DNA of 63,498 nt, counting the filler, from Acidimicrobiia bacterium (GTDB lineage Bacteria; Actinomycetota; Acidimicrobiia; Spongiisociales; JAHEDJ01), in NCBI GenBank assembly GCA_029210695.1. It is 7 parts of 7 records of this genome, joined end to end, with 100 filler letters (N's around TTAATTAATTAA, not from the genome) between each part and the next. Parts side by side here need not be neighbours in the genome. Positions count along the whole stretch, not along the records: positions 47,890 to 55,885 come from JARGFH010000096.1; 6 more parts are not named here. One strand, given 5' to 3'. Both the position numbers and the translations under genes were made by a program. Under the pieces are notes generated by a model that saw nothing but the letters and a program-made list of their open reading frames with translations, was not told the DNA's origin and searched no databases. This document shows positions 47,979-55,711 of this stretch, in pieces. The first letter of the stretch is position 1. Every line of letters starts with the position of its first letter.

Positions 47979-48743
47979 GTGGCCGTCGTTCTCCTGGGCG
48001 TCGGGTGCAGCACCGCCGCCACCTCGAGCACGGCTGCCATATCGAGCACCGTCGTCATGCCGAGCACCGACGCGACATCGGGCATCGCCGTCTCACCGGG
48101 TTCGACGGCCGGGACGGTGGAGGATACGGCGTGGCAGAGCGAGTTCGGCCTCGACCAATGCGATCTCGCAACCGTCGGCGGAAATGATTACTTCATCCTC
48201 GAGCCAGGTTTTCAGCTGGTGCTCGAGAGTGCAGCCGAACGCCTGGTGATCACCGTTCTCGATGAGACCGCGACAATCGACGGAGTCGAAACCCGGATCG
48301 TGGAGGAACGCGAGTGGAGGGGCGACTCCCTCATCGAGGTTTCTCGTAACTTCTTCGCCACCTGTGCGGCAACCGGTGACGTCTTCTACTTCGGGGAGGA
48401 GGTGGACGACTACGCAAGCGGGGAGGTCGTGAACCATACCGGAGCGTGGTTAGCGGGCGAGGCCGGGGCCGGGGCCGGGCTCATCATGCCGGCGCAACCC
48501 AGAATCGGCATGCGCTACTTCCAGGAGGTGGCTCCCGAGGTGGCTATGGATCGGGCCGAGGTCGTGAGCCTCACGCACACGCTCGAGACGCCGGCGGGCA
48601 CGTTCTCCGACTGCCTGCGTACCCAGGAAGGATCGGCGCTGAAGCCGGGTGAACGGGAGTTCAAGACGTATGCACCCGGCATCGGCCTCGTTCAGGATCA
48701 ATCCCTTCTGCTCGTTGCGTACGGGTACGACCTGGTGCCGTGA
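47979..48743 (+). CDS. Uncharacterised lipoprotein; signal n-region probably removed by ISL3
   Basis: Lipobox LGVGC; IDGVET..E...FFA...GDVFYFGE..W.AG..GAG..MP..YAPGIG. Confidence 0.75.
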   Translation: MAVVLLGVGCSTAATSSTAAISSTVVMPSTDATSGIAVSPGSTAGTVEDTAWQSEFGLDQCDLATVGGNDYFILEPGFQLVLESAAERLVITVLDETATIDGVETRIVEEREWRGDSLIEVSRNFFATCAATGDVFYFGEEVDDYASGEVVNHTGAWLAGEAGAGAGLIMPAQPRIGMRYFQEVAPEVAMDRAEVVSLTHTLETPAGTFSDCLRTQEGSALKPGEREFKTYAPGIGLVQDQSLLLVAYGYDLVP

Positions 48744-48753
48744 GGCGAGCCCG

Positions 48754-49698
48754 TCACCCGCTGATCGGGTCCGTCAATCCGTAGACGTCCGGACTGATCT
48801 CGTACCCATGGGCTTCCAGATCGAGGACCGCCTCCCGCGCCACCGTTCGGTCGGCGCCGCTCAGCGTCACTACCGAGACGAGCTCCAATTCCTCCCGGCC
48901 CTCGTCGGTGCCACTCCAATCGACCTTGATGTTGCCAACACCGGCAGCGAAGTACTTGTGCTGAAAGGCCCCCGGTTCCTCGACGTTGAACTCGTCGATG
49001 ATCAGAACATCCTCGTAGCATCCGGTTGCGACGCAGACGCTTGCACTGAACCGGCCCACTATTGCCCTGTCGATAAACTCGACGGCCGGCCCCCATCCCT
49101 GGGAATAGCTGGTCGATCCCACCTGCGGATCGCCGCGCATGGCGATTCCGGCGCGTGCTCCGGCGATGCCGGATATCCAGGTCGGCGCATCGACGAGCGC
49201 GCCCGCGTCGTATTCTTCGGGATGCTCTCCCATTCGCCACACGTTGCCGTCATCGTCCTGGGCGAAGAAGGCCAACTCGGTTTCGGCGAGTTCGCCGGCG
49301 CTGTAGTCACGGGCCCAAACCACGAGCGTTTCGATTCCGTCGATGACCTTGGTCATGTCCGTTGCCGTGTAGACGACCCGATGCTCGATCATTTCGAACT
49401 TGTTCGTGAATCCCTTGTAGACGAGCTTGGTCCATGGTTTGAACGGCAGGAAGGGGTTGTCGATCACGGTGGGATCGCTGAAGCGGTCGTAGTCGAGCGT
49501 CTCGTACTCAGTTCGGGGTGCCTCGACCTCCGGGAGTGCCATGACCGTCGATGCTGTCGGTTGGCTGGCCGCCAGGCGGACCGACTCTGAAACGGGAGCC
49601 ACCGTCAGGGGCGTGGGCTCTGCGGCACAGGCAGCCGACATGATCAGAACCACCACACCCGTAGACGCCGCCACGTCGAAACGTCGCACCTCGTTCAC
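48754..49698 (-). CDS. Uncharacterised lipoprotein, paralog of 47979-48743
   Basis: Lipobox SAAC; IDGIET..E...FFAQDDDGNVWRMGE..W.SG..GA.AG..KYFAAGVG. Confidence 0.8.
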   Translation of the reverse strand: MNEVRRFDVAASTGVVVLIMSAACAAEPTPLTVAPVSESVRLAASQPTASTVMALPEVEAPRTEYETLDYDRFSDPTVIDNPFLPFKPWTKLVYKGFTNKFEMIEHRVVYTATDMTKVIDGIETLVVWARDYSAGELAETELAFFAQDDDGNVWRMGEHPEEYDAGALVDAPTWISGIAGARAGIAMRGDPQVGSTSYSQGWGPAVEFIDRAIVGRFSASVCVATGCYEDVLIIDEFNVEEPGAFQHKYFAAGVGNIKVDWSGTDEGREELELVSVVTLSGADRTVAREAVLDLEAHGYEISPDVYGLTDPISG

Positions 49699-49894: not shown

Positions 49895-50860
49895 CTAAGG
49901 GCCGGCGAACGACAGGAACCACAGGTAATCAACCAGACTGCGGGTCTCCTCGACGGTGAACAGCGTCCCGAAATTGGGCATGTCGGTGCCCATCCCTCCC
50001 CGGCGGATCTTGGCGTACCAGATGTCGCCCCGGCGCAGCCAGGCGGCTTCGGCGAACGCGACGGGCGGATCTATCGTCGATTCGGCCACCGGTCCATCTC
50101 CGCCGCCGCGCTCTCCGTGGCAGGCCGCGCAGTTCTTCGCGAACAACTCGACTGCCTGTTCCGTTGGAACGGTATTCGACCACAGGTAGGCGACGACGTC
50201 GATCAGGAGATCATCCGGTGTGTCGCGGTTGGCGGCGCGAAGCAGTCCGAGACCACCCTCGGGCGTGTGCTGCAGCCGCCAATCTGGTTCGAGAAGTTCG
50301 GCCGGTACCTCGACCGACCCGACACTCGCTTGCCCGCGTGCACGGTCCGGGACGATTCCGTCCACGGTCTGAGGGTCGGCGTCGATATCGATCCCGGCTG
50401 CCACCAATGCCTCGATGATCGGGTCGGGGGGTGACGACAGCGGACTCGCAGCATCGGGGTCGACCACCTCGAGGACGCCGCGCATCCTCCAGTGGCTAGG
50501 ACTGCACCAAGTGTTGCAGTAGTACGTATAGATCCCGGGCGAATCGACCGTAAGCGTTATCTCCCCGACGTGACCGGGGTCTACCTGGCCGATGTCGACC
50601 CCGAGGCCGGGTCCGATGGCGATTCCATGGACGACGTCGTCGGCTGCGAATCGCAGTGTGACCGTTTCCCCGACCTCCATCCGCACCAGGTCCGGTTGGA
50701 ACCCACCATTCTCCGGAACGCGGGCGGTGATGTCGATGATGCGATGATCGGCGAACACCGGGCGAAGTCCGTACTGGTATCCAACGATCGTGAGGGGGAT
50801 ACCGACCAGGATGGCAATCAGCGTGACAATGGCCGTCCGGTTGCCCCGCCCGTTGGTCAT
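49895..50860 (-). CDS. Membrane-anchored CuA-type cupredoxin + cytochrome c fusion
   Basis: TM; DVVHG..CNTWCSPSHWRM; CAACH..MPNF; ATGA overlap at 50857-60. Confidence 0.88.
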   Translation of the reverse strand: MTNGRGNRTAIVTLIAILVGIPLTIVGYQYGLRPVFADHRIIDITARVPENGGFQPDLVRMEVGETVTLRFAADDVVHGIAIGPGLGVDIGQVDPGHVGEITLTVDSPGIYTYYCNTWCSPSHWRMRGVLEVVDPDAASPLSSPPDPIIEALVAAGIDIDADPQTVDGIVPDRARGQASVGSVEVPAELLEPDWRLQHTPEGGLGLLRAANRDTPDDLLIDVVAYLWSNTVPTEQAVELFAKNCAACHGERGGGDGPVAESTIDPPVAFAEAAWLRRGDIWYAKIRRGGMGTDMPNFGTLFTVEETRSLVDYLWFLSFAGP

Positions 50861-52263
50861 CCGAGGTAGAGCCAGAGGAGGGCGAGGGTGGACGCCAGCA
50901 AGAACGCGACGACGGGAACGGCTGCCCGGGTGGCGGTAGTGCCGGAGGGGTCGTGACGGAAACCGACTCGCAGGGTCGTGCGGATACTGAATAGAAGTCC
51001 GCCAACGAGAATGGCGGCTTGGATGGCCGGTGCAGTGCCGGAGAGGTACGGAGTCCATCCGGTCTCGCTCGTTCCGAAGAGGTTCCATCCCCAGCCGAGA
51101 GGGTCCGAGACGGCGGCCAGCGCGTAGCTGCCGTTGGTCAGGGCGAAACCGACGCTGAAGGCCATCCAGGCCGCCAGGCCCAGCGGTATGAGAGAGTGGG
51201 CATATTCGCGATATGCCTGACGGATGGTCACGCCGGTGGCTGACCGTCTTTGCGCGGCAAAGACGGTCAGCCAGAAGACCCCTGGAACGAAGAGCAGCGT
51301 TGCAGAGAGGAAAGCGGTCGCATAGATGGCCCATCCCCAGAGCGATTCGACCGATGCCCACCCCCTGACCGTCGCCCACGGCCCGAACAACACCGCCGGA
51401 TAGATGATGGAGCACGCCAGCATGATGAGTGCCTTGTACGCCTCGTCGATCTGCTTGCCGCCTCCCGGTTTGGCGAGATCGGCACCCGGACGGCGCAGGT
51501 TGATCACGACGTTGTCCATCGTGCACGTTTTCAGACACTCGGTACAGAAACCACAATCGAGGTTGCGGTCGAGTTTCCCTGGGTAGACCATCCACGGACA
51601 GCCATAGCCGCGCTCGTTGCCGGTGATGCAGTCCTTCGAACGGTGGTCCACGCACACCTGTGTGTCGCGGACCCTCAGTTCGATGGGGGCAGCCATCGAG
51701 TAGAGCCCGATGAACCCACCGATCGGGCACACGTACTTGCAGAACACACGGTTCTCGAAGAGCAAACTCATGCTCACGGCAACTCCGGCCAATCCGAGTA
51801 TCACGCCTGCGGACACGGTCGGACGGGTGAGGATGATCATCGAAAACAGAGCGAGGATCAAGAACCCCACATTCTGAATCCACATGTTGCGAAGCCGGCG
51901 GGGCCAGCGGAGCCCCAGGGTGCGCAGCTTCCCCCCTCCGCCGATGATGCCGCGCCGCTGTATCCACTCACCCGGCGCAGGGATCGGGCAGATGGTGCAC
52001 CATATGCGACCAAAACCCGGGACCATCAGCACCATCAGCACCGCCCACCACACGATCCATACGAACACGATGCCGAAGTTGCGATTCCCGGCCGATGTGC
52101 CCAGCAGGCCGGCGACGATCGCCAGCGCGAATGGAGCCAGCAGCAGCAGCATCGACACCGGTTGGAAGGAGCGGGACATGACTACTCGCCTGAGCCGAGG
52201 CATCCGGCCGAGCACATCGAGTCGGCGCTCATCTGCCGGGGGCTTGCGCACGAGCGTCTTCAC
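50857..52263 (-). CDS. Membrane polyferredoxin (NapH/NosR/CcoG-like)
   Basis: GRIWCTICP, FCKYVCP, C..C..GCP, CGFCTECLKTC; many TM. Confidence 0.88.
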   Translation of the reverse strand: MKTLVRKPPADERRLDVLGRMPRLRRVVMSRSFQPVSMLLLLAPFALAIVAGLLGTSAGNRNFGIVFVWIVWWAVLMVLMVPGFGRIWCTICPIPAPGEWIQRRGIIGGGGKLRTLGLRWPRRLRNMWIQNVGFLILALFSMIILTRPTVSAGVILGLAGVAVSMSLLFENRVFCKYVCPIGGFIGLYSMAAPIELRVRDTQVCVDHRSKDCITGNERGYGCPWMVYPGKLDRNLDCGFCTECLKTCTMDNVVINLRRPGADLAKPGGGKQIDEAYKALIMLACSIIYPAVLFGPWATVRGWASVESLWGWAIYATAFLSATLLFVPGVFWLTVFAAQRRSATGVTIRQAYREYAHSLIPLGLAAWMAFSVGFALTNGSYALAAVSDPLGWGWNLFGTSETGWTPYLSGTAPAIQAAILVGGLLFSIRTTLRVGFRHDPSGTTATRAAVPVVAFLLASTLALLWLYLG

Positions 52264-52721
52264 GCCGACCGCCGGGTCCCGGCGCCGATCAACATCGCCG
52301 CCGCCGCAATGACGGCGATGGCGCTCGCCCGCCACAGAGGCTCATTCGGGCCGACGACCAGTTCACCGATCATGAACGGGTGCAGTGGGCCGCAGGATAC
52401 GGAGCAGCGGTAGTTGAACTTGCCGGACCGGTCCGCCGAAACCGTGAACTGCTGCGAGATGCCCGGTTCGACTCTGGCATCGATCTCGTAACCATCGAGG
52501 AAAAAGCCGTGGACGACATCAGAAGCCGTCAGCGTCACCTGCAATGTGTCACCACGATTGACTGTGAGGCGACCCGGGGAGTATTCGAACTGGGACGCAT
52601 CGATTGAAATGCGGTGGGTCTGTGGGGCGTGGAAGGCGGGGACGGGGACCAACAACGCCGCTAGGACAAGCAGCAGGAGGACGGACCTCCGTGCGATGAC
52701 CGGACGTTTCGAGGTCTGCAT
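52260..52721 (-). CDS. CuA-type cupredoxin (COX2-like) with C-terminal TM
   Basis: QFEYSP, DVVHGF, CSVSCGPLHPFM. Confidence 0.88.
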   Translation of the reverse strand: MQTSKRPVIARRSVLLLLVLAALLVPVPAFHAPQTHRISIDASQFEYSPGRLTVNRGDTLQVTLTASDVVHGFFLDGYEIDARVEPGISQQFTVSADRSGKFNYRCSVSCGPLHPFMIGELVVGPNEPLWRASAIAVIAAAAMLIGAGTRRSA

Positions 52722-52734
52722 GCGGCGACTGGAT

Positions 52735-53205
52735 CTACGCCGGGGGGAGCGGAGTCGGCGTCGCAGGGCCAAACTTGCCGTAGCGCCCGTCCACGTACTG
52801 CCGGATTTCAGCCGGGGCCTTGCCGTCTCTCGTCATTCGCATCGTGTCCTGTGCGATGTCCACGCAGATGCCGCACCCCGTCGCGTGCGTATCGAAGGTG
52901 ATGGTGCCGTCGACGGCGATGTCTGCGATGAAGCAATCGAGATTGCTTGTATGGCCCATAGACCCGCAGCCGCAGTAGCAGGGTTGGTGGGAGAGATCAT
53001 CTGGATGGGCGACGGCGAAGAGGTATGCCTCTTGCACTGTGCTCGGAGCGGATCGGGCAAACTCGGGCAGCATCGACTGGTCGGCCAGGTCCATGTCGTG
53101 GCTCTCTCCGCAGGCGGAAACAGCCAAACCTGAGGCGACGATCATCAGCGCCCCTATCAGAGAGATACTCCTCGTGGCGGGCATAGTGCCAAACCTCCCT
53201 GTCAT
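52735..53205 (-). CDS. PCYCGC-motif lipoprotein
   Basis: Lipobox VSAC; PCYCGC, GH.SNLDCF, H..GCGIC. Confidence 0.9.
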   Translation of the reverse strand: MTGRFGTMPATRSISLIGALMIVASGLAVSACGESHDMDLADQSMLPEFARSAPSTVQEAYLFAVAHPDDLSHQPCYCGCGSMGHTSNLDCFIADIAVDGTITFDTHATGCGICVDIAQDTMRMTRDGKAPAEIRQYVDGRYGKFGPATPTPLPPA

Positions 53206-53251
53206 CGTCCGGGCTCCAGGCTCAGAGGGAACGGTGTCCCGGCGCCCATGT

Positions 53252-53740
53252 TCATTGCACCCAGTTCGAGAGAATGGTGATCTGGCGGTCTGGATTGGCC
53301 GGGTCGTTGGTCGGTAAGTGAAGTCGAAAGTCGTGAGGTCCGTCCATGCCGGCGTGCATTGTGAAAGCGACTACGACTTTTGTTGACTCTCCGGGGTTGA
53401 GGACCATCGAACCGATGGTCGGTGTGGGCGGTCAACACCCATCCTTGAGTTCGACGAAGGGCATCTCCGCAAAGAGAAGCGCCGCGTCGCCTGAGTTCGT
53501 CACTTCGAAGACAGCCTCGACCATCTGGTTGAACGGCACGTCACCAAAGTCGACGTAGTCGGAATCGACGGTGAGTGCCGGCGTCCCAGTCGTATCGATG
53601 GCCTCCTGCGACTGATCGGGCTCGTTTCCGGACGCGATGATGGAAACGATTGCGAGGGCCGCGATTGAAGCTCCGGTGAAGAGCAGGGTGCGGGAGCGAA
53701 CCGTCTTCCGGCTCGGTCGTCGATCCGATTGCTTGCTCAC
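53252..53740 (-). CDS. Putative selenoprotein: membrane-anchored DUF1573-like Ig-fold protein with a CU motif (162 aa via UGA at 53432-34)
   Basis: Frame continues 59 codons past TGA: ELKDGC-U-PPTPTIGSMVLNPGEST..MHAGMDGPHDFRLHLPTNDP..SNWVQ*; hairpin 11 nt after UGA. Confidence 0.8.
53402..53420 (-). promoter_or_regulatory. Candidate bacterial SECIS element
   Basis: GACCAUCG-GUU-CGAUGGUC perfect 8-bp stem, with 11 nt between UGA and stem. Confidence 0.7.
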
Positions 53741-53861
53741 GTGTTCCTCTCGTTCATTAGTGATCTTGATCTGTAATTATCAGACAAACTGATGGATACT
53801 GGTGGAGCCAGAAGTCCCAACGCCTCGCGAAAGGTCCCAATGCCGGTTCCGTCACACGATC

Positions 53862-55010
53862 TCATATCGACGGAATCCGCAGCACAAAAGTCGAACCATG
53901 TCCAAGACCCGGTGATTGAGCGCTGATGTCCCCGCCGTGGCGTCTGGCGATAGCACGGGCGATGGTGAGCCCGATGCCGCTGCCGCCGGGTTCGCCTTGG
54001 TGGCCCCGATAGAACCGCTCGAATACGGCGGCTTCTTCTTCTCGCCCGAGGCCCCTTCCTGTGTCGGTAACCTCGACAACAGCCTCGCCGTCCTCGGCGT
54101 GCACGGAGATCGAAACCTTGCCGCCGGGACTGGTGTAAGTGAGCGCGTTGCCGATCACGTTGGTGAGCACCTGCGAGATCCTGTCCCTGTCGGCGAAGAC
54201 GGGGGTGGCTTGTCGAGTGTCCTCGATCATCAACGCCACACCCTTGGCGTCGAACTGCACCCGTAAGTGGCTTCCGACCTCATGGGCGAGGTCGGTCAGA
54301 TCCAGATTCTGGAGGTCGAGAGGCTGGTTGCCTTCCTCGGCCCTCGAAACGGCGCTCAAATCGTCCGCCAGTCGGGTGAGCCTGCGCAGCTCCCGGCCGG
54401 ATGCGGCCAGGATTTCATCGGTCGGCTCGAACACCCCGTCGAGCATGCCTTCGAGGTACCCTTCGATGGTGGTGAGCGGCGTCCGCAGCTCGTGGGATAT
54501 CTCAGAGATCATCCGGATCCTCCGTCGCTCGGTCGAGTCCAATGATTCCGCGAGTGCGTTGACATCCTCGGCCAGGGCTGCGAGCTCTCTTTCGGCGGGC
54601 GGTTCGATCCTCTCCGCGTAGGCGCCGGCTGCCAGCCTGCGCGTGGTGTCTCGAACCGTTTGAAGGGGTGAGAGAATTCGCCGGGTTACGAATCCACTCA
54701 CAACAGTGGCTGCAAGTGCGGCGATCGCCAGCGAGATGAGCAGGGCTCGTCGAAGGGAGCTGTCGAACGCCTGCTGAAGGCCAATATCGATTGCCGGTGT
54801 GAGGAAGCCCGCCGACGAATCACCCATCATGCTGCCGTCCATCATCATGTTGGTGCCCGTCATCATCGCGTTCATGAGTTCGACGTCGCTCTCGAAGAAC
54901 GACGGGGCCAGCAGCTCGGAAATCGCCACGAGCGTTGCGGCGCCCACCAAGAGGACGAGGATCTGGGCGGTCAGCATGCGTGACCACAGGCTTCCGAAAT
55001 GCCTGGTCAC
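53862..55010 (-). CDS. HAMP sensor histidine kinase with Met-rich extracytoplasmic segment
   Basis: SHELRTPL, NVIGNA, DTGRG, FERFYR, GSGIGL; MNAMMTGTNMMMDGSMMG. Confidence 0.93.
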   Translation of the reverse strand: MTRHFGSLWSRMLTAQILVLLVGAATLVAISELLAPSFFESDVELMNAMMTGTNMMMDGSMMGDSSAGFLTPAIDIGLQQAFDSSLRRALLISLAIAALAATVVSGFVTRRILSPLQTVRDTTRRLAAGAYAERIEPPAERELAALAEDVNALAESLDSTERRRIRMISEISHELRTPLTTIEGYLEGMLDGVFEPTDEILAASGRELRRLTRLADDLSAVSRAEEGNQPLDLQNLDLTDLAHEVGSHLRVQFDAKGVALMIEDTRQATPVFADRDRISQVLTNVIGNALTYTSPGGKVSISVHAEDGEAVVEVTDTGRGLGREEEAAVFERFYRGHQGEPGGSGIGLTIARAIARRHGGDISAQSPGLGHGSTFVLRIPSI

Positions 55011-55711
55011 GATTCCACCCCGATGAATTTGTAGCCGACTCCGCGGGCCGTGGCGATGAAACGCGGTTCGAGTGGGTCGTCGTCTAGCACTTTGCGGAGA
55101 TTGGAGATGTGGACGTCAACCACCCGATCGACGCCCACATAGTCCCATCCCCATACCCGTTCCATGAGTTGGTCACGGGAGAAGACACGCCGGGGAGCCT
55201 GGGCCAGCGCGATCAGCAGATCGAATTCGAGGGCACTGAGGTCGAGCAACCGCCCGTCAAGGTGGATCTCACGGGTCCCGAGGTCAATGACCAGTCCTTC
55301 GAACTGCAGCACCTCTGAGGAGCGGGAATCCTGGACGGCAGTTGCGCGTCTCAGAACTGCCCCGATCCGGGCGACGAGTTCCCGGGGAGAAAACGGCTTG
55401 GTCACGTAGTCGTCGGCTCCAACGGTGAGACCGACCACGCGATCAACCTCCTCAGACCGCGCGGTGAGCATGATCACCGGCACCGCTGATAATGCCCGCA
55501 GCCGGCGCAGGACTTCGAAACCATCGATGTCCGGCAAGCCGACGTCGAGCACGACCAGGTCGGGTTCCTTGCCGGCTGCCAGGCTGAGGCCGTCGATCCC
55601 CGCTGCAGCCTCCAGGACCTCGAACCCGTCGGCTTTCAGGTAGCTCGACAGCATGGTTCGGAGGTCCTGCTCGTCATCGATGATCAGTACTCGTCGTGAC
55701 ATATCGGTCAC
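55007..55711 (-). CDS. OmpR-family response regulator
   Basis: IIDDE, LDVGLP, GADDYVTKPF, RVVDVHISNLR. Confidence 0.95.
   Translation of the reverse strand: MTDMSRRVLIIDDEQDLRTMLSSYLKADGFEVLEAAAGIDGLSLAAGKEPDLVVLDVGLPDIDGFEVLRRLRALSAVPVIMLTARSEEVDRVVGLTVGADDYVTKPFSPRELVARIGAVLRRATAVQDSRSSEVLQFEGLVIDLGTREIHLDGRLLDLSALEFDLLIALAQAPRRVFSRDQLMERVWGWDYVGVDRVVDVHISNLRKVLDDDPLEPRFIATARGVGYKFIGVES

Follow-up and report, generated by a model that had tools for sequence, protein, structure and literature searches.

What can a membrane iron-sulfur protein do when its genomic partners are two CuA proteins and a selenoprotein, and no terminal enzyme lies beside it? This question is raised by a block of five genes in the window, a stretch of 63,498 nucleotides from an Acidimicrobiia bacterium (assembly GCA_029210695.1) which consists of seven short contigs joined by runs of N. 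The five open reading frames lie on the minus strand of one contig of 7,996 bp in the order A-B-C-D-E, where A is an Ig-like protein, B a PCYCGC lipoprotein, C a cupredoxin, D a membrane polyferredoxin and E a cupredoxin-cytochrome c fusion (Table 1). The original prediction had placed the five genes in this order, had described the last three as translationally coupled and had noted the lack of oxidase subunit I and NosZ. All five frames were found as described, C and D overlap by GTGA and D and E by ATGA, and neither enzyme is encoded on this short contig. The protein assignments made there were also borne out, with Pfam matches for DUF1573/Ig in A, PCYCGC in B, COX2/Cupredoxin in C and E, Fer4_5 in D and cytochrome c in E. 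We tentatively propose that the block forms a copper-regulated conduit which may carry cytoplasmic electrons to extracytoplasmic CuA and heme c centres, with A and B as assembly helpers, and we judge this reading to have somewhat less than an even chance of being right.

The starting point is the primary structure of D, which was found to have about nine hydrophobic segments, a CxxCP and a CxxxCP motif and two [4Fe-4S]-type cluster motifs, one of them with His207. All of the Cys motifs are placed in the cytoplasm because they lie in Lys/Arg-rich loops, which are expected to stay on the inner side. As far as this primary structure goes, D carries two cytoplasmic [4Fe-4S]-type sites together with two CX2-3CP motifs. 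In C and E the full CuA ligand set, His...Cys-x3-Cys-x3-His-x2-Met, is retained in 70-71 of 70-71 and 74-75 of 75-76 aligned homologues respectively, and the best PDB matches of the CuA regions were those of Thermus ba3 CuA. E also has the CxxCH and two conserved Met residues of a class I cytochrome c, and its middle part matches its own heme domain (HHalign probability 74.5, E 2.7e-5), so that it is predicted to be a heme-less cytochrome-c-like domain. By these ligands C and E carry complete CuA sets extracytoplasmically and E adds a c heme, which agrees with the CuA cupredoxin and CuA-cytochrome c fusion named in the original prediction.

It was considered that C or E could be missing oxidase subunits II. 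The host has three COX1-family genes on other contigs, two of which (caa3- and ba3-type) adjoin a CuA subunit II of their own, and this possibility was therefore rejected. E resembles the caa3 oxidase subunit II (CtaC) in having CuA followed by cytochrome c, but it differs in its single anchor helix, its extra heme-less domain and the lack of a subunit I. To our knowledge, nearly all described CuA centres belong to subunits of terminal enzymes.

Relatives of D have shown how closely the CuA and the iron-sulfur parts belong together. A profile of D gave 635 representatives at E <=1e-30, of which the best 150 were listed, and 121 of these have at least 430 residues. CuA is fused to D in 22-25 of the 121 (two patterns), and D has CuA genes next to it in most of a set of 76 metagenome loci, which were fetched with a query biased to flavoprotein-inserted forms and in which CuA-D-CuA is the recurring core (B in 8, A in 4-5). 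For these reasons CuA and D are treated as one unit. In addition, 6 of the 121 representatives carry a flavo-iron-sulfur module of NAD(P)H type (Fer4_20+Pyr_redox_2) within the ferredoxin domain, at more than one insertion site, and the same insert is present in 6 of the 76 loci; it is this insertion which links the iron-sulfur side to pyridine nucleotides. The carriers of the GltD/NfnB-like insert are P0138, P0148, P0154, P0159, P0160 and P0270 among the representatives and L109, L114 and L116-L119 among the loci. In P0138 a single polypeptide combines CuA with the membrane part and the NAD(P)H module. Among 60 relatives scanned with Pfam, other fusions were to NosL, YHS, cytochrome c, c554 and AhpC/TSA. 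Two residues of D were tried as family-wide traits and rejected: His207 is replaced by Cys in 69 of the 121 representatives and is a subfamily trait, and the putative membrane metal site Met281/Cys284 is conserved only in the close subfamily.

The block itself is conserved across relatives. A search with D returned 451 relatives in the genome collection, and the best 80 loci were used for all counts out of 80. B was present in 73 of them, A in 59 and all five genes in 54, so the association is more than chance. The gene order was BCADE in 32 loci, BCDEA in 15, BCDE in 15, ABCDE in 7 and partial in 11; A stands directly before D in 32 and was undetected in 21, some of which are short. These loci are mostly from Chloroflexota, plus Acidimicrobiia, and the labels of the five closest, whose D is 70-80% identical, are Actinomycetes, Acidimicrobiia or uncultured bacterium. 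One carrier is in culture, Aggregatilinea lenta, the organism named for P0088. In a sample of one Chloroflexota class D was present in 36 of 201 genomes. Of 60 relatives of the host (one of them unpublished), only 2 have a full-length D orthologue; the block is accessory in the host lineage and may have been acquired by transfer from Chloroflexota. No description of the five-gene block was found in the literature at title and abstract level, and a set joining a membrane iron-sulfur protein, free-standing CuA carriers and a selenium-containing helper is apparently undescribed.

The surroundings of the block point to copper, and neither this copper-island context nor the adjacent two-component system with a Met-rich loop figured in the original prediction. 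Recurrent neighbours across the 80 loci were P1B ATPases (17), SHOCT (13), DUF305 (13 and 5), HMA (10), multicopper oxidase (9) and YHS (5) proteins as well as two-component systems, and those P1B ATPases that the pattern matched have a CPC or CPH motif. A copper-type neighbour occurred in 33 of the 52 loci of at least 12 kb, a figure without a background control. The palindrome CGCCAnnTGGCG has 66 occurrences in 1.06 Mb, where 2-4 would be expected, and its positions are before B (33), DUF305 (15), P1B ATPase (3), HMA (2), multicopper oxidase (1) and YHS (1) genes. Of the loci that encode a HisKA_3 kinase, 31 of 40 have the palindrome, and of those that do not, 9 of 40; the upstream regions that carry it are those of L007-L079, where it is tied to a NarL/HisKA_3 two-component system. 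These sites are a candidate for an undescribed copper regulon in Chloroflexota. The sensor kinase upstream of the block in the window is a putative Cu(I) sensor. Since the palindrome is common to the block and to copper genes, the neighbours are of copper type and the kinase loop is Met-rich, the block would be part of a copper regulon. No respiratory catalytic subunit was found among the recurrent neighbours of the five-gene form (clusters in at least 3 of the 80 loci).

In the favoured conduit, D would take electrons from a cytoplasmic reductant at the level of NAD(P)H or ferredoxin and would relay them to the outside, first to the CuA of C, its partner, and next to the CuA and heme c of E. 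E would deliver them to extracytoplasmic acceptors, for which copper ions or cuproproteins are the most likely candidates, at times of copper loading or copper stress. The redox potentials of CuA and heme c lie far above those of [4Fe-4S] clusters, and because of this difference the flow is drawn from the inner iron-sulfur sites to the outer CuA and heme c. An outward flow of electrons that no protons accompany would be paid for with membrane potential, a cost easier to reconcile with maintenance or metal handling than with energy conservation, and on this ground the copper-regulated outward conduit is favoured over the three rival explanations weighed below. A, with its Cys-Sec pair and Met/His loop, would bind Cu(I) and load the CuA sites, while the CcmH-like, Cys-rich B would keep the thiols of apo-CuA and CxxCH reduced. 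The dedicated Cys/Sec assembly or metal-handling factors of the original prediction thus retain plausible candidates in A and B. Its established quinol donor was not upheld, because the Cys motifs of D are cytoplasmic, relatives carry NAD(P)H inserts and the CuA fusions have no transmembrane His.

Selenium in A is well supported. Residue 103 is encoded by TGA in 33, TGC in 17 and TGT in 8 of 58 aligned homologues, always in the context G-C-[U/C]-P. Among the TGA copies, that of the window included, 33 of 34 are followed by a hairpin with G in the loop and a stem of at least 6 bp, against 5 of 25 Cys copies; because kin among them are not independent, the p-values of this contrast are overstated. 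The hairpin of gene A is more stable than that of synonymous shuffles (z = -4.0). The host encodes SelA, SelB, tRNA-Sec (SelC) and SelD; its SelD gene (G000:C94:13659-14588) itself contains an in-frame TGA. The TGA/Cys alignment and the conserved hairpin led us to reject a stop codon or a sequencing error, and A is read from its sequence as a true Cys-Sec/Cys-Cys protein. The second in-frame TGA is the real stop, as the homologues end there. The Sec-containing Ig-fold protein put forward in the original prediction is thereby supported, and the end coordinate given there marks the start of A, whereas the gene itself runs past the first TGA to 53252. Its selenium is optional to the operon, with Cys in 25 of the 58 copies and A undetected in some loci. 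Past the Sec residue, a Met, a His, a second Met and a second His show little or no variation among 55 sequences. Such Met/His patterns are known from Cu(I) chaperones, and this resemblance suggests that A may bind Cu(I). Tandem copies of A occur in L079 (7508-8459), where one is a Cys and one a Sec form, and in L075 (10394-11081).

A passes the Pfam DUF1573 cut-off and its Cys homologues, all 24 of those scanned, match OS_HP2 weakly, yet the OS_HP2 model (NF041425) gave A only 17.5 bits and the L009 copy 43.6 against a cut-off of 100. In the available parts of a 2026 review with a table of 119 selenoprotein families, DUF1573 is listed only with a UGC motif (PMC13188914), which is also the motif in the available part of PMC9312934. 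The Cys-Sec motif of A, G-C-U-P-P, was not found in the portion of that catalogue accessible to us (PMC13188914), and supplementary lists such as BSepDB Table S2 could contain it. NCBIfam 20.0 has no model above cut-off for the GCUPP subfamily, and no homologue of A was found in the Atlas. Because the catalogued motif is UGC, A is best described as a different Sec position on the known DUF1573 scaffold.

The structure of B was predicted with high confidence (pLDDT 94.6). CcmH was its top natural match in four weak searches and by HHalign, the four being Foldseek (E 0.5), VIA (Z 4.3, rmsd 3.6, 75 aligned), a profile comparison (E 0.002) and a Pfam search (11 of 63, below cut-off), and this likeness is a lead and not a membership. 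An Atlas search with B returned only PCYCGC clusters, and one paper, in the part available, calls PCYCGC unassignable.

Several observations weigh against the conduit proposed here. No residue that explains the crossing of the bilayer by electrons was found in D, and no heme-b or metal ligand is conserved across its membrane part. A transmembrane His was found in 0 of 25 CuA fusions versus 61 of 96 other representatives, so that the crossing step lacks a recognisable carrier. The forms with a flavoprotein insert are only distantly related and came from a query that favoured them; in the 76 metagenome loci none of them occurred together with A or B. In one of these loci (L120:640-9363) a CuA-D-CuA module is divergent from a clade II nosZ-nosL-nosD cluster, and in 7-13 of the 76, by subunit counted, the CuA-D core is beside type II DMSO reductase genes; such positions argue for respiration there. 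There is a sister pair in which every redox ligand is missing. The window's own clade does not have the palindrome; it has a different upstream motif and an OmpR-type pair. Oxygen-reductase-like genes (E <1e-80) were called in 30 of 36 D-positive versus 74 of 165 D-negative genomes, a comparison confounded by kinship and genome size. For B, the HHalign match to CcmH (probability 81) covers 32 columns only. Apart from these points, for the model of D (pLDDT 85.5) Foldseek had no match with E <=0.001 and VIA listed nothing but generic helical bundles, and D has no sequence match in PDB. Two side observations concern these variants: a transmembrane His-x-x-His is found in about half of the non-CuA relatives (P0126-P0275, fused to YHS, NosL or cytochromes), and in L132, L157-L160, L162 and L168 CuA-D directly follows an operon of the type II DMSO-reductase family (alpha, beta, chaperone, gamma; all below named cut-offs). 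The neighbours in L120 look archaeal, and its CuA-D-CuA module could stand in for NosR/NosGH.

The block works like NapH-like conduits, FtrBD and CcoG, yet it fails a defining feature of each, as far as the available parts of the reports describe them (PMC8238504, PMC11966278, PMC7558416). The rival that survives best, although we regard it as unlikely, is a metal redox-and-transport unit like FtrBD/CcoG, in which D would be a permease-like scaffold or a cupric reductase at the cytoplasmic CX3CP, and the cupredoxins would oxidise or hold metal outside without long-range export of electrons. D aligns with the gene in the FtrD position, the fourth of an ftrABCD-type operon, over 348 columns (HHalign 99.1%), which is most of its length, and both are paired with a cupredoxin. 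A sister system from the host's taxonomic order also keeps scaffold and cupredoxin: a cupredoxin-like protein followed by a D-like membrane protein, neither with a Pfam name (8 of 9 loci; L092-L100, for example L098:155-616 and 613-1986), matching the block's scaffold and cupredoxin by HHalign at 99.3% and 98.0%. Its cupredoxin has HxHGYD and no CuA ligands; its D-like protein has no ferredoxin domain and nearly no Cys, but a His-Gly start after the signal and transmembrane histidines, and the pair is possibly a metal permease. A match was obtained in 34 of 61 genomes, in most of them a weak one of sister type. The copper-island context fits this rival as well, and so does CcoG, since A forms a free Ig domain in front of D in the commonest gene order and CcoG, in the available text (PMC7558416), combines a pair of [4Fe-4S] clusters and a pair of Cu sites with an Ig-like domain whose function is unknown. 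D shares with CcoG/FixG the two [4Fe-4S] motifs, of which one has His207 as a ligand, the Cys metal motifs, the copper link and the Ig-like partner, but the block is not in a ccoGHIS cluster, its Ig domain is a separate DUF1573-type selenoprotein, and D has a longer C-terminal membrane half and CuA partners. Against this rival, neither FTR1 (FtrC) nor FtrA is on the contig or among neighbour clusters in at least 3 of the 80 loci, and of 5 genomes tested for FTR1, only 2 gave a match. The block has two cupredoxins of CuA type plus heme c, A and B, unlike FtrABCD; complete CuA ligand sets and heme c are signatures of electron transfer, and FtrB uses a different Asp/His site in the part of PMC11966278 that was available.

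A quinol-to-CuA-to-heme branch, which would bypass cytochrome bc and feed oxidases, NosZ or other periplasmic reductases in trans, is likewise improbable. The distant modules beside nos and DMSO reductase genes speak for it, and an oxygen-reductase-like gene or NosZ was present in 32 of 36 D-positive versus 74 of 165 D-negative genomes. NosZ itself was found in 17 of 36 versus 30 of 165, but a specific tie of D to NosZ was rejected, as the link vanishes among oxidase-positive genomes (15 of 30 with D, 30 of 74 without), and in the host no NosZ match reached the cut-off. Cyanobacterial cNMP-domain proteins, which we take to be FesM, are 26% identical to D across 90% of its length, with a cNMP-binding N-terminal domain in place of CuA. 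According to the available part of PMC9003380, FesM is tied to cyclic electron flow, and in part of PMC8238504 NapH-like proteins are presented as conduits of modular use, some of which probably draw on quinol. D is like NapH, NosR and PceC in being a PF12801 membrane iron-sulfur protein with CX3CP motifs, an extracytoplasmic redox domain and modular pairing with enzymes. However, the outside carrier is CuA here and covalent FMN there, D has no FMN domain, NapH models score far below cut-off on it, nosZ is linked only in the distant L120, and the five-gene form has neither NapG nor a catalytic partner. In contrast to a heme-copper oxidase operon, no subunit I is present on the contig or among the recurrent neighbours. 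The cytoplasmic clusters of D, fused to NAD(P)H modules in relatives, the upstream site that the five-gene form has in common with copper genes, the lack of a recurrent respiratory catalytic neighbour and the accessory distribution among host relatives all stand against a quinol branch. We consider it very unlikely that the block serves in trans to assemble CuA enzymes (aa3/ba3 oxidases, NosZ), with C and E donating copper and electrons to the apo-enzymes. In favour of such a role, D co-occurs with these enzymes, has relatives fused to NosL, YHS or AhpC/TSA and stands in some loci with SCO1, CcdA and TlpA genes. Against it, 74 of the 104 oxidase-positive genomes in the sample are without D, neither enzyme was detected in 4 of 36 D-positive genomes and no described assembly gene set matches the block.

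Apart from these rivals, a more general statement is possible, though doubtful: CuA may be a free-standing, plug-in extracytoplasmic terminal on an FtrD/NapH-like membrane protein, the copper counterpart of the FMN domain of NosR/PceC, and the whole a general electron conduit from cytoplasm to periplasm that is attached in different lineages to NosZ, to type II DMSO reductases or, in the present form, to a copper regulon, with A as a selenoprotein chaperone of CuA.

Table 1. Position and supporting evidence of the features of the five-gene block and its upstream region (window coordinates).
Feature	Position	Strand	Evidence or remarks
Gene A, membrane-anchored Ig-like (DUF1573/OS_HP2-related) selenoprotein	53252..53740	-	G-C-U-P-P plus M-H-x-G-M-x-G-x-H; TGA read through
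Sec codon TGA, residue 103 of gene A	53432..53434	-	Homologue alignment and host Sec genes
SECIS-type hairpin, gene A	53402..53420	-	8-bp stem, GUU loop, begins 11 nt past TGA
Gene B, PCYCGC lipoprotein, remotely CcmH-like helical bundle	52735..53184 (alternative start 53205)	-	Six Cys and two His conserved
Gene C, exported CuA cupredoxin, C-terminal anchor	52260..52721	-	H71, C106, C110, H114, M117
Gene D, about 9-TM FtrD/FesM/NapH-like polyferredoxin	50857..52263	-	CxxCP, CxxxCP, 2x[4Fe-4S]-type domain, His207 replacing a Cys
Gene E, N-anchored CuA domain, heme-less cytochrome-c-like domain and class I cytochrome c	49895..50860	-	CxxCH, Met290/294
OmpR-family response regulator, likely regulator of the block	55007..55711	-	Pfam Response_reg and Trans_reg_C; same position in L002, L006
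Sensor kinase, Met-rich extracytoplasmic loop	53862..55010	-	HAMP/HisKA/HATPase; two TM helices; Met-rich loop also in L002, L006
Tandem GGAC(C/T)TT...GGACTT motif, candidate regulator site	53812..53838	-	Same motif 5' of A in L002, L004, L005, L006
TGATAAT, candidate extended -10	53776..53782	-	GATAAT similarly spaced upstream in L002-L006

The start of B was set at residue 8, following the Atlas entry. The tandem motif has six matches in the host, which are the site of the block, four identical ones near contig ends and one other. The first 60 bases of each contig of the window recur on other contigs, which suggests the ends of insertion sequences and means that the wider context of the block is missing. 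A scan of the region for sigma-70 promoters and terminators gave nothing informative, and a repeat search showed no large repeat structure. Two convergent paralogous lipoprotein-like genes (47979-48743, plus strand, and 48754-49698, minus strand; 29% identical) flank the block; they have no Pfam or NCBIfam match and were rejected as members because no match was found in the 80 loci. An hgcA-type gene lies near the block in L137 (2572-3567) and in L115, the L137 copy being over the cut-off.

If the proposal is true, CuA would act as a stand-alone carrier in a widespread family, which would be a new job for this centre. The variants described above bear on the question which electron partners the cytoplasmic clusters of NapH/NosR/FtrD/CcoG-type proteins have; the single-chain form P0138 makes this directly testable, and the sister pair without redox ligands provides a natural control. 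A adds a selenoprotein subfamily which standard gene calling cuts short at the TGA, and the PCYCGC family gains its first functional lead through the CcmH-like match of B.

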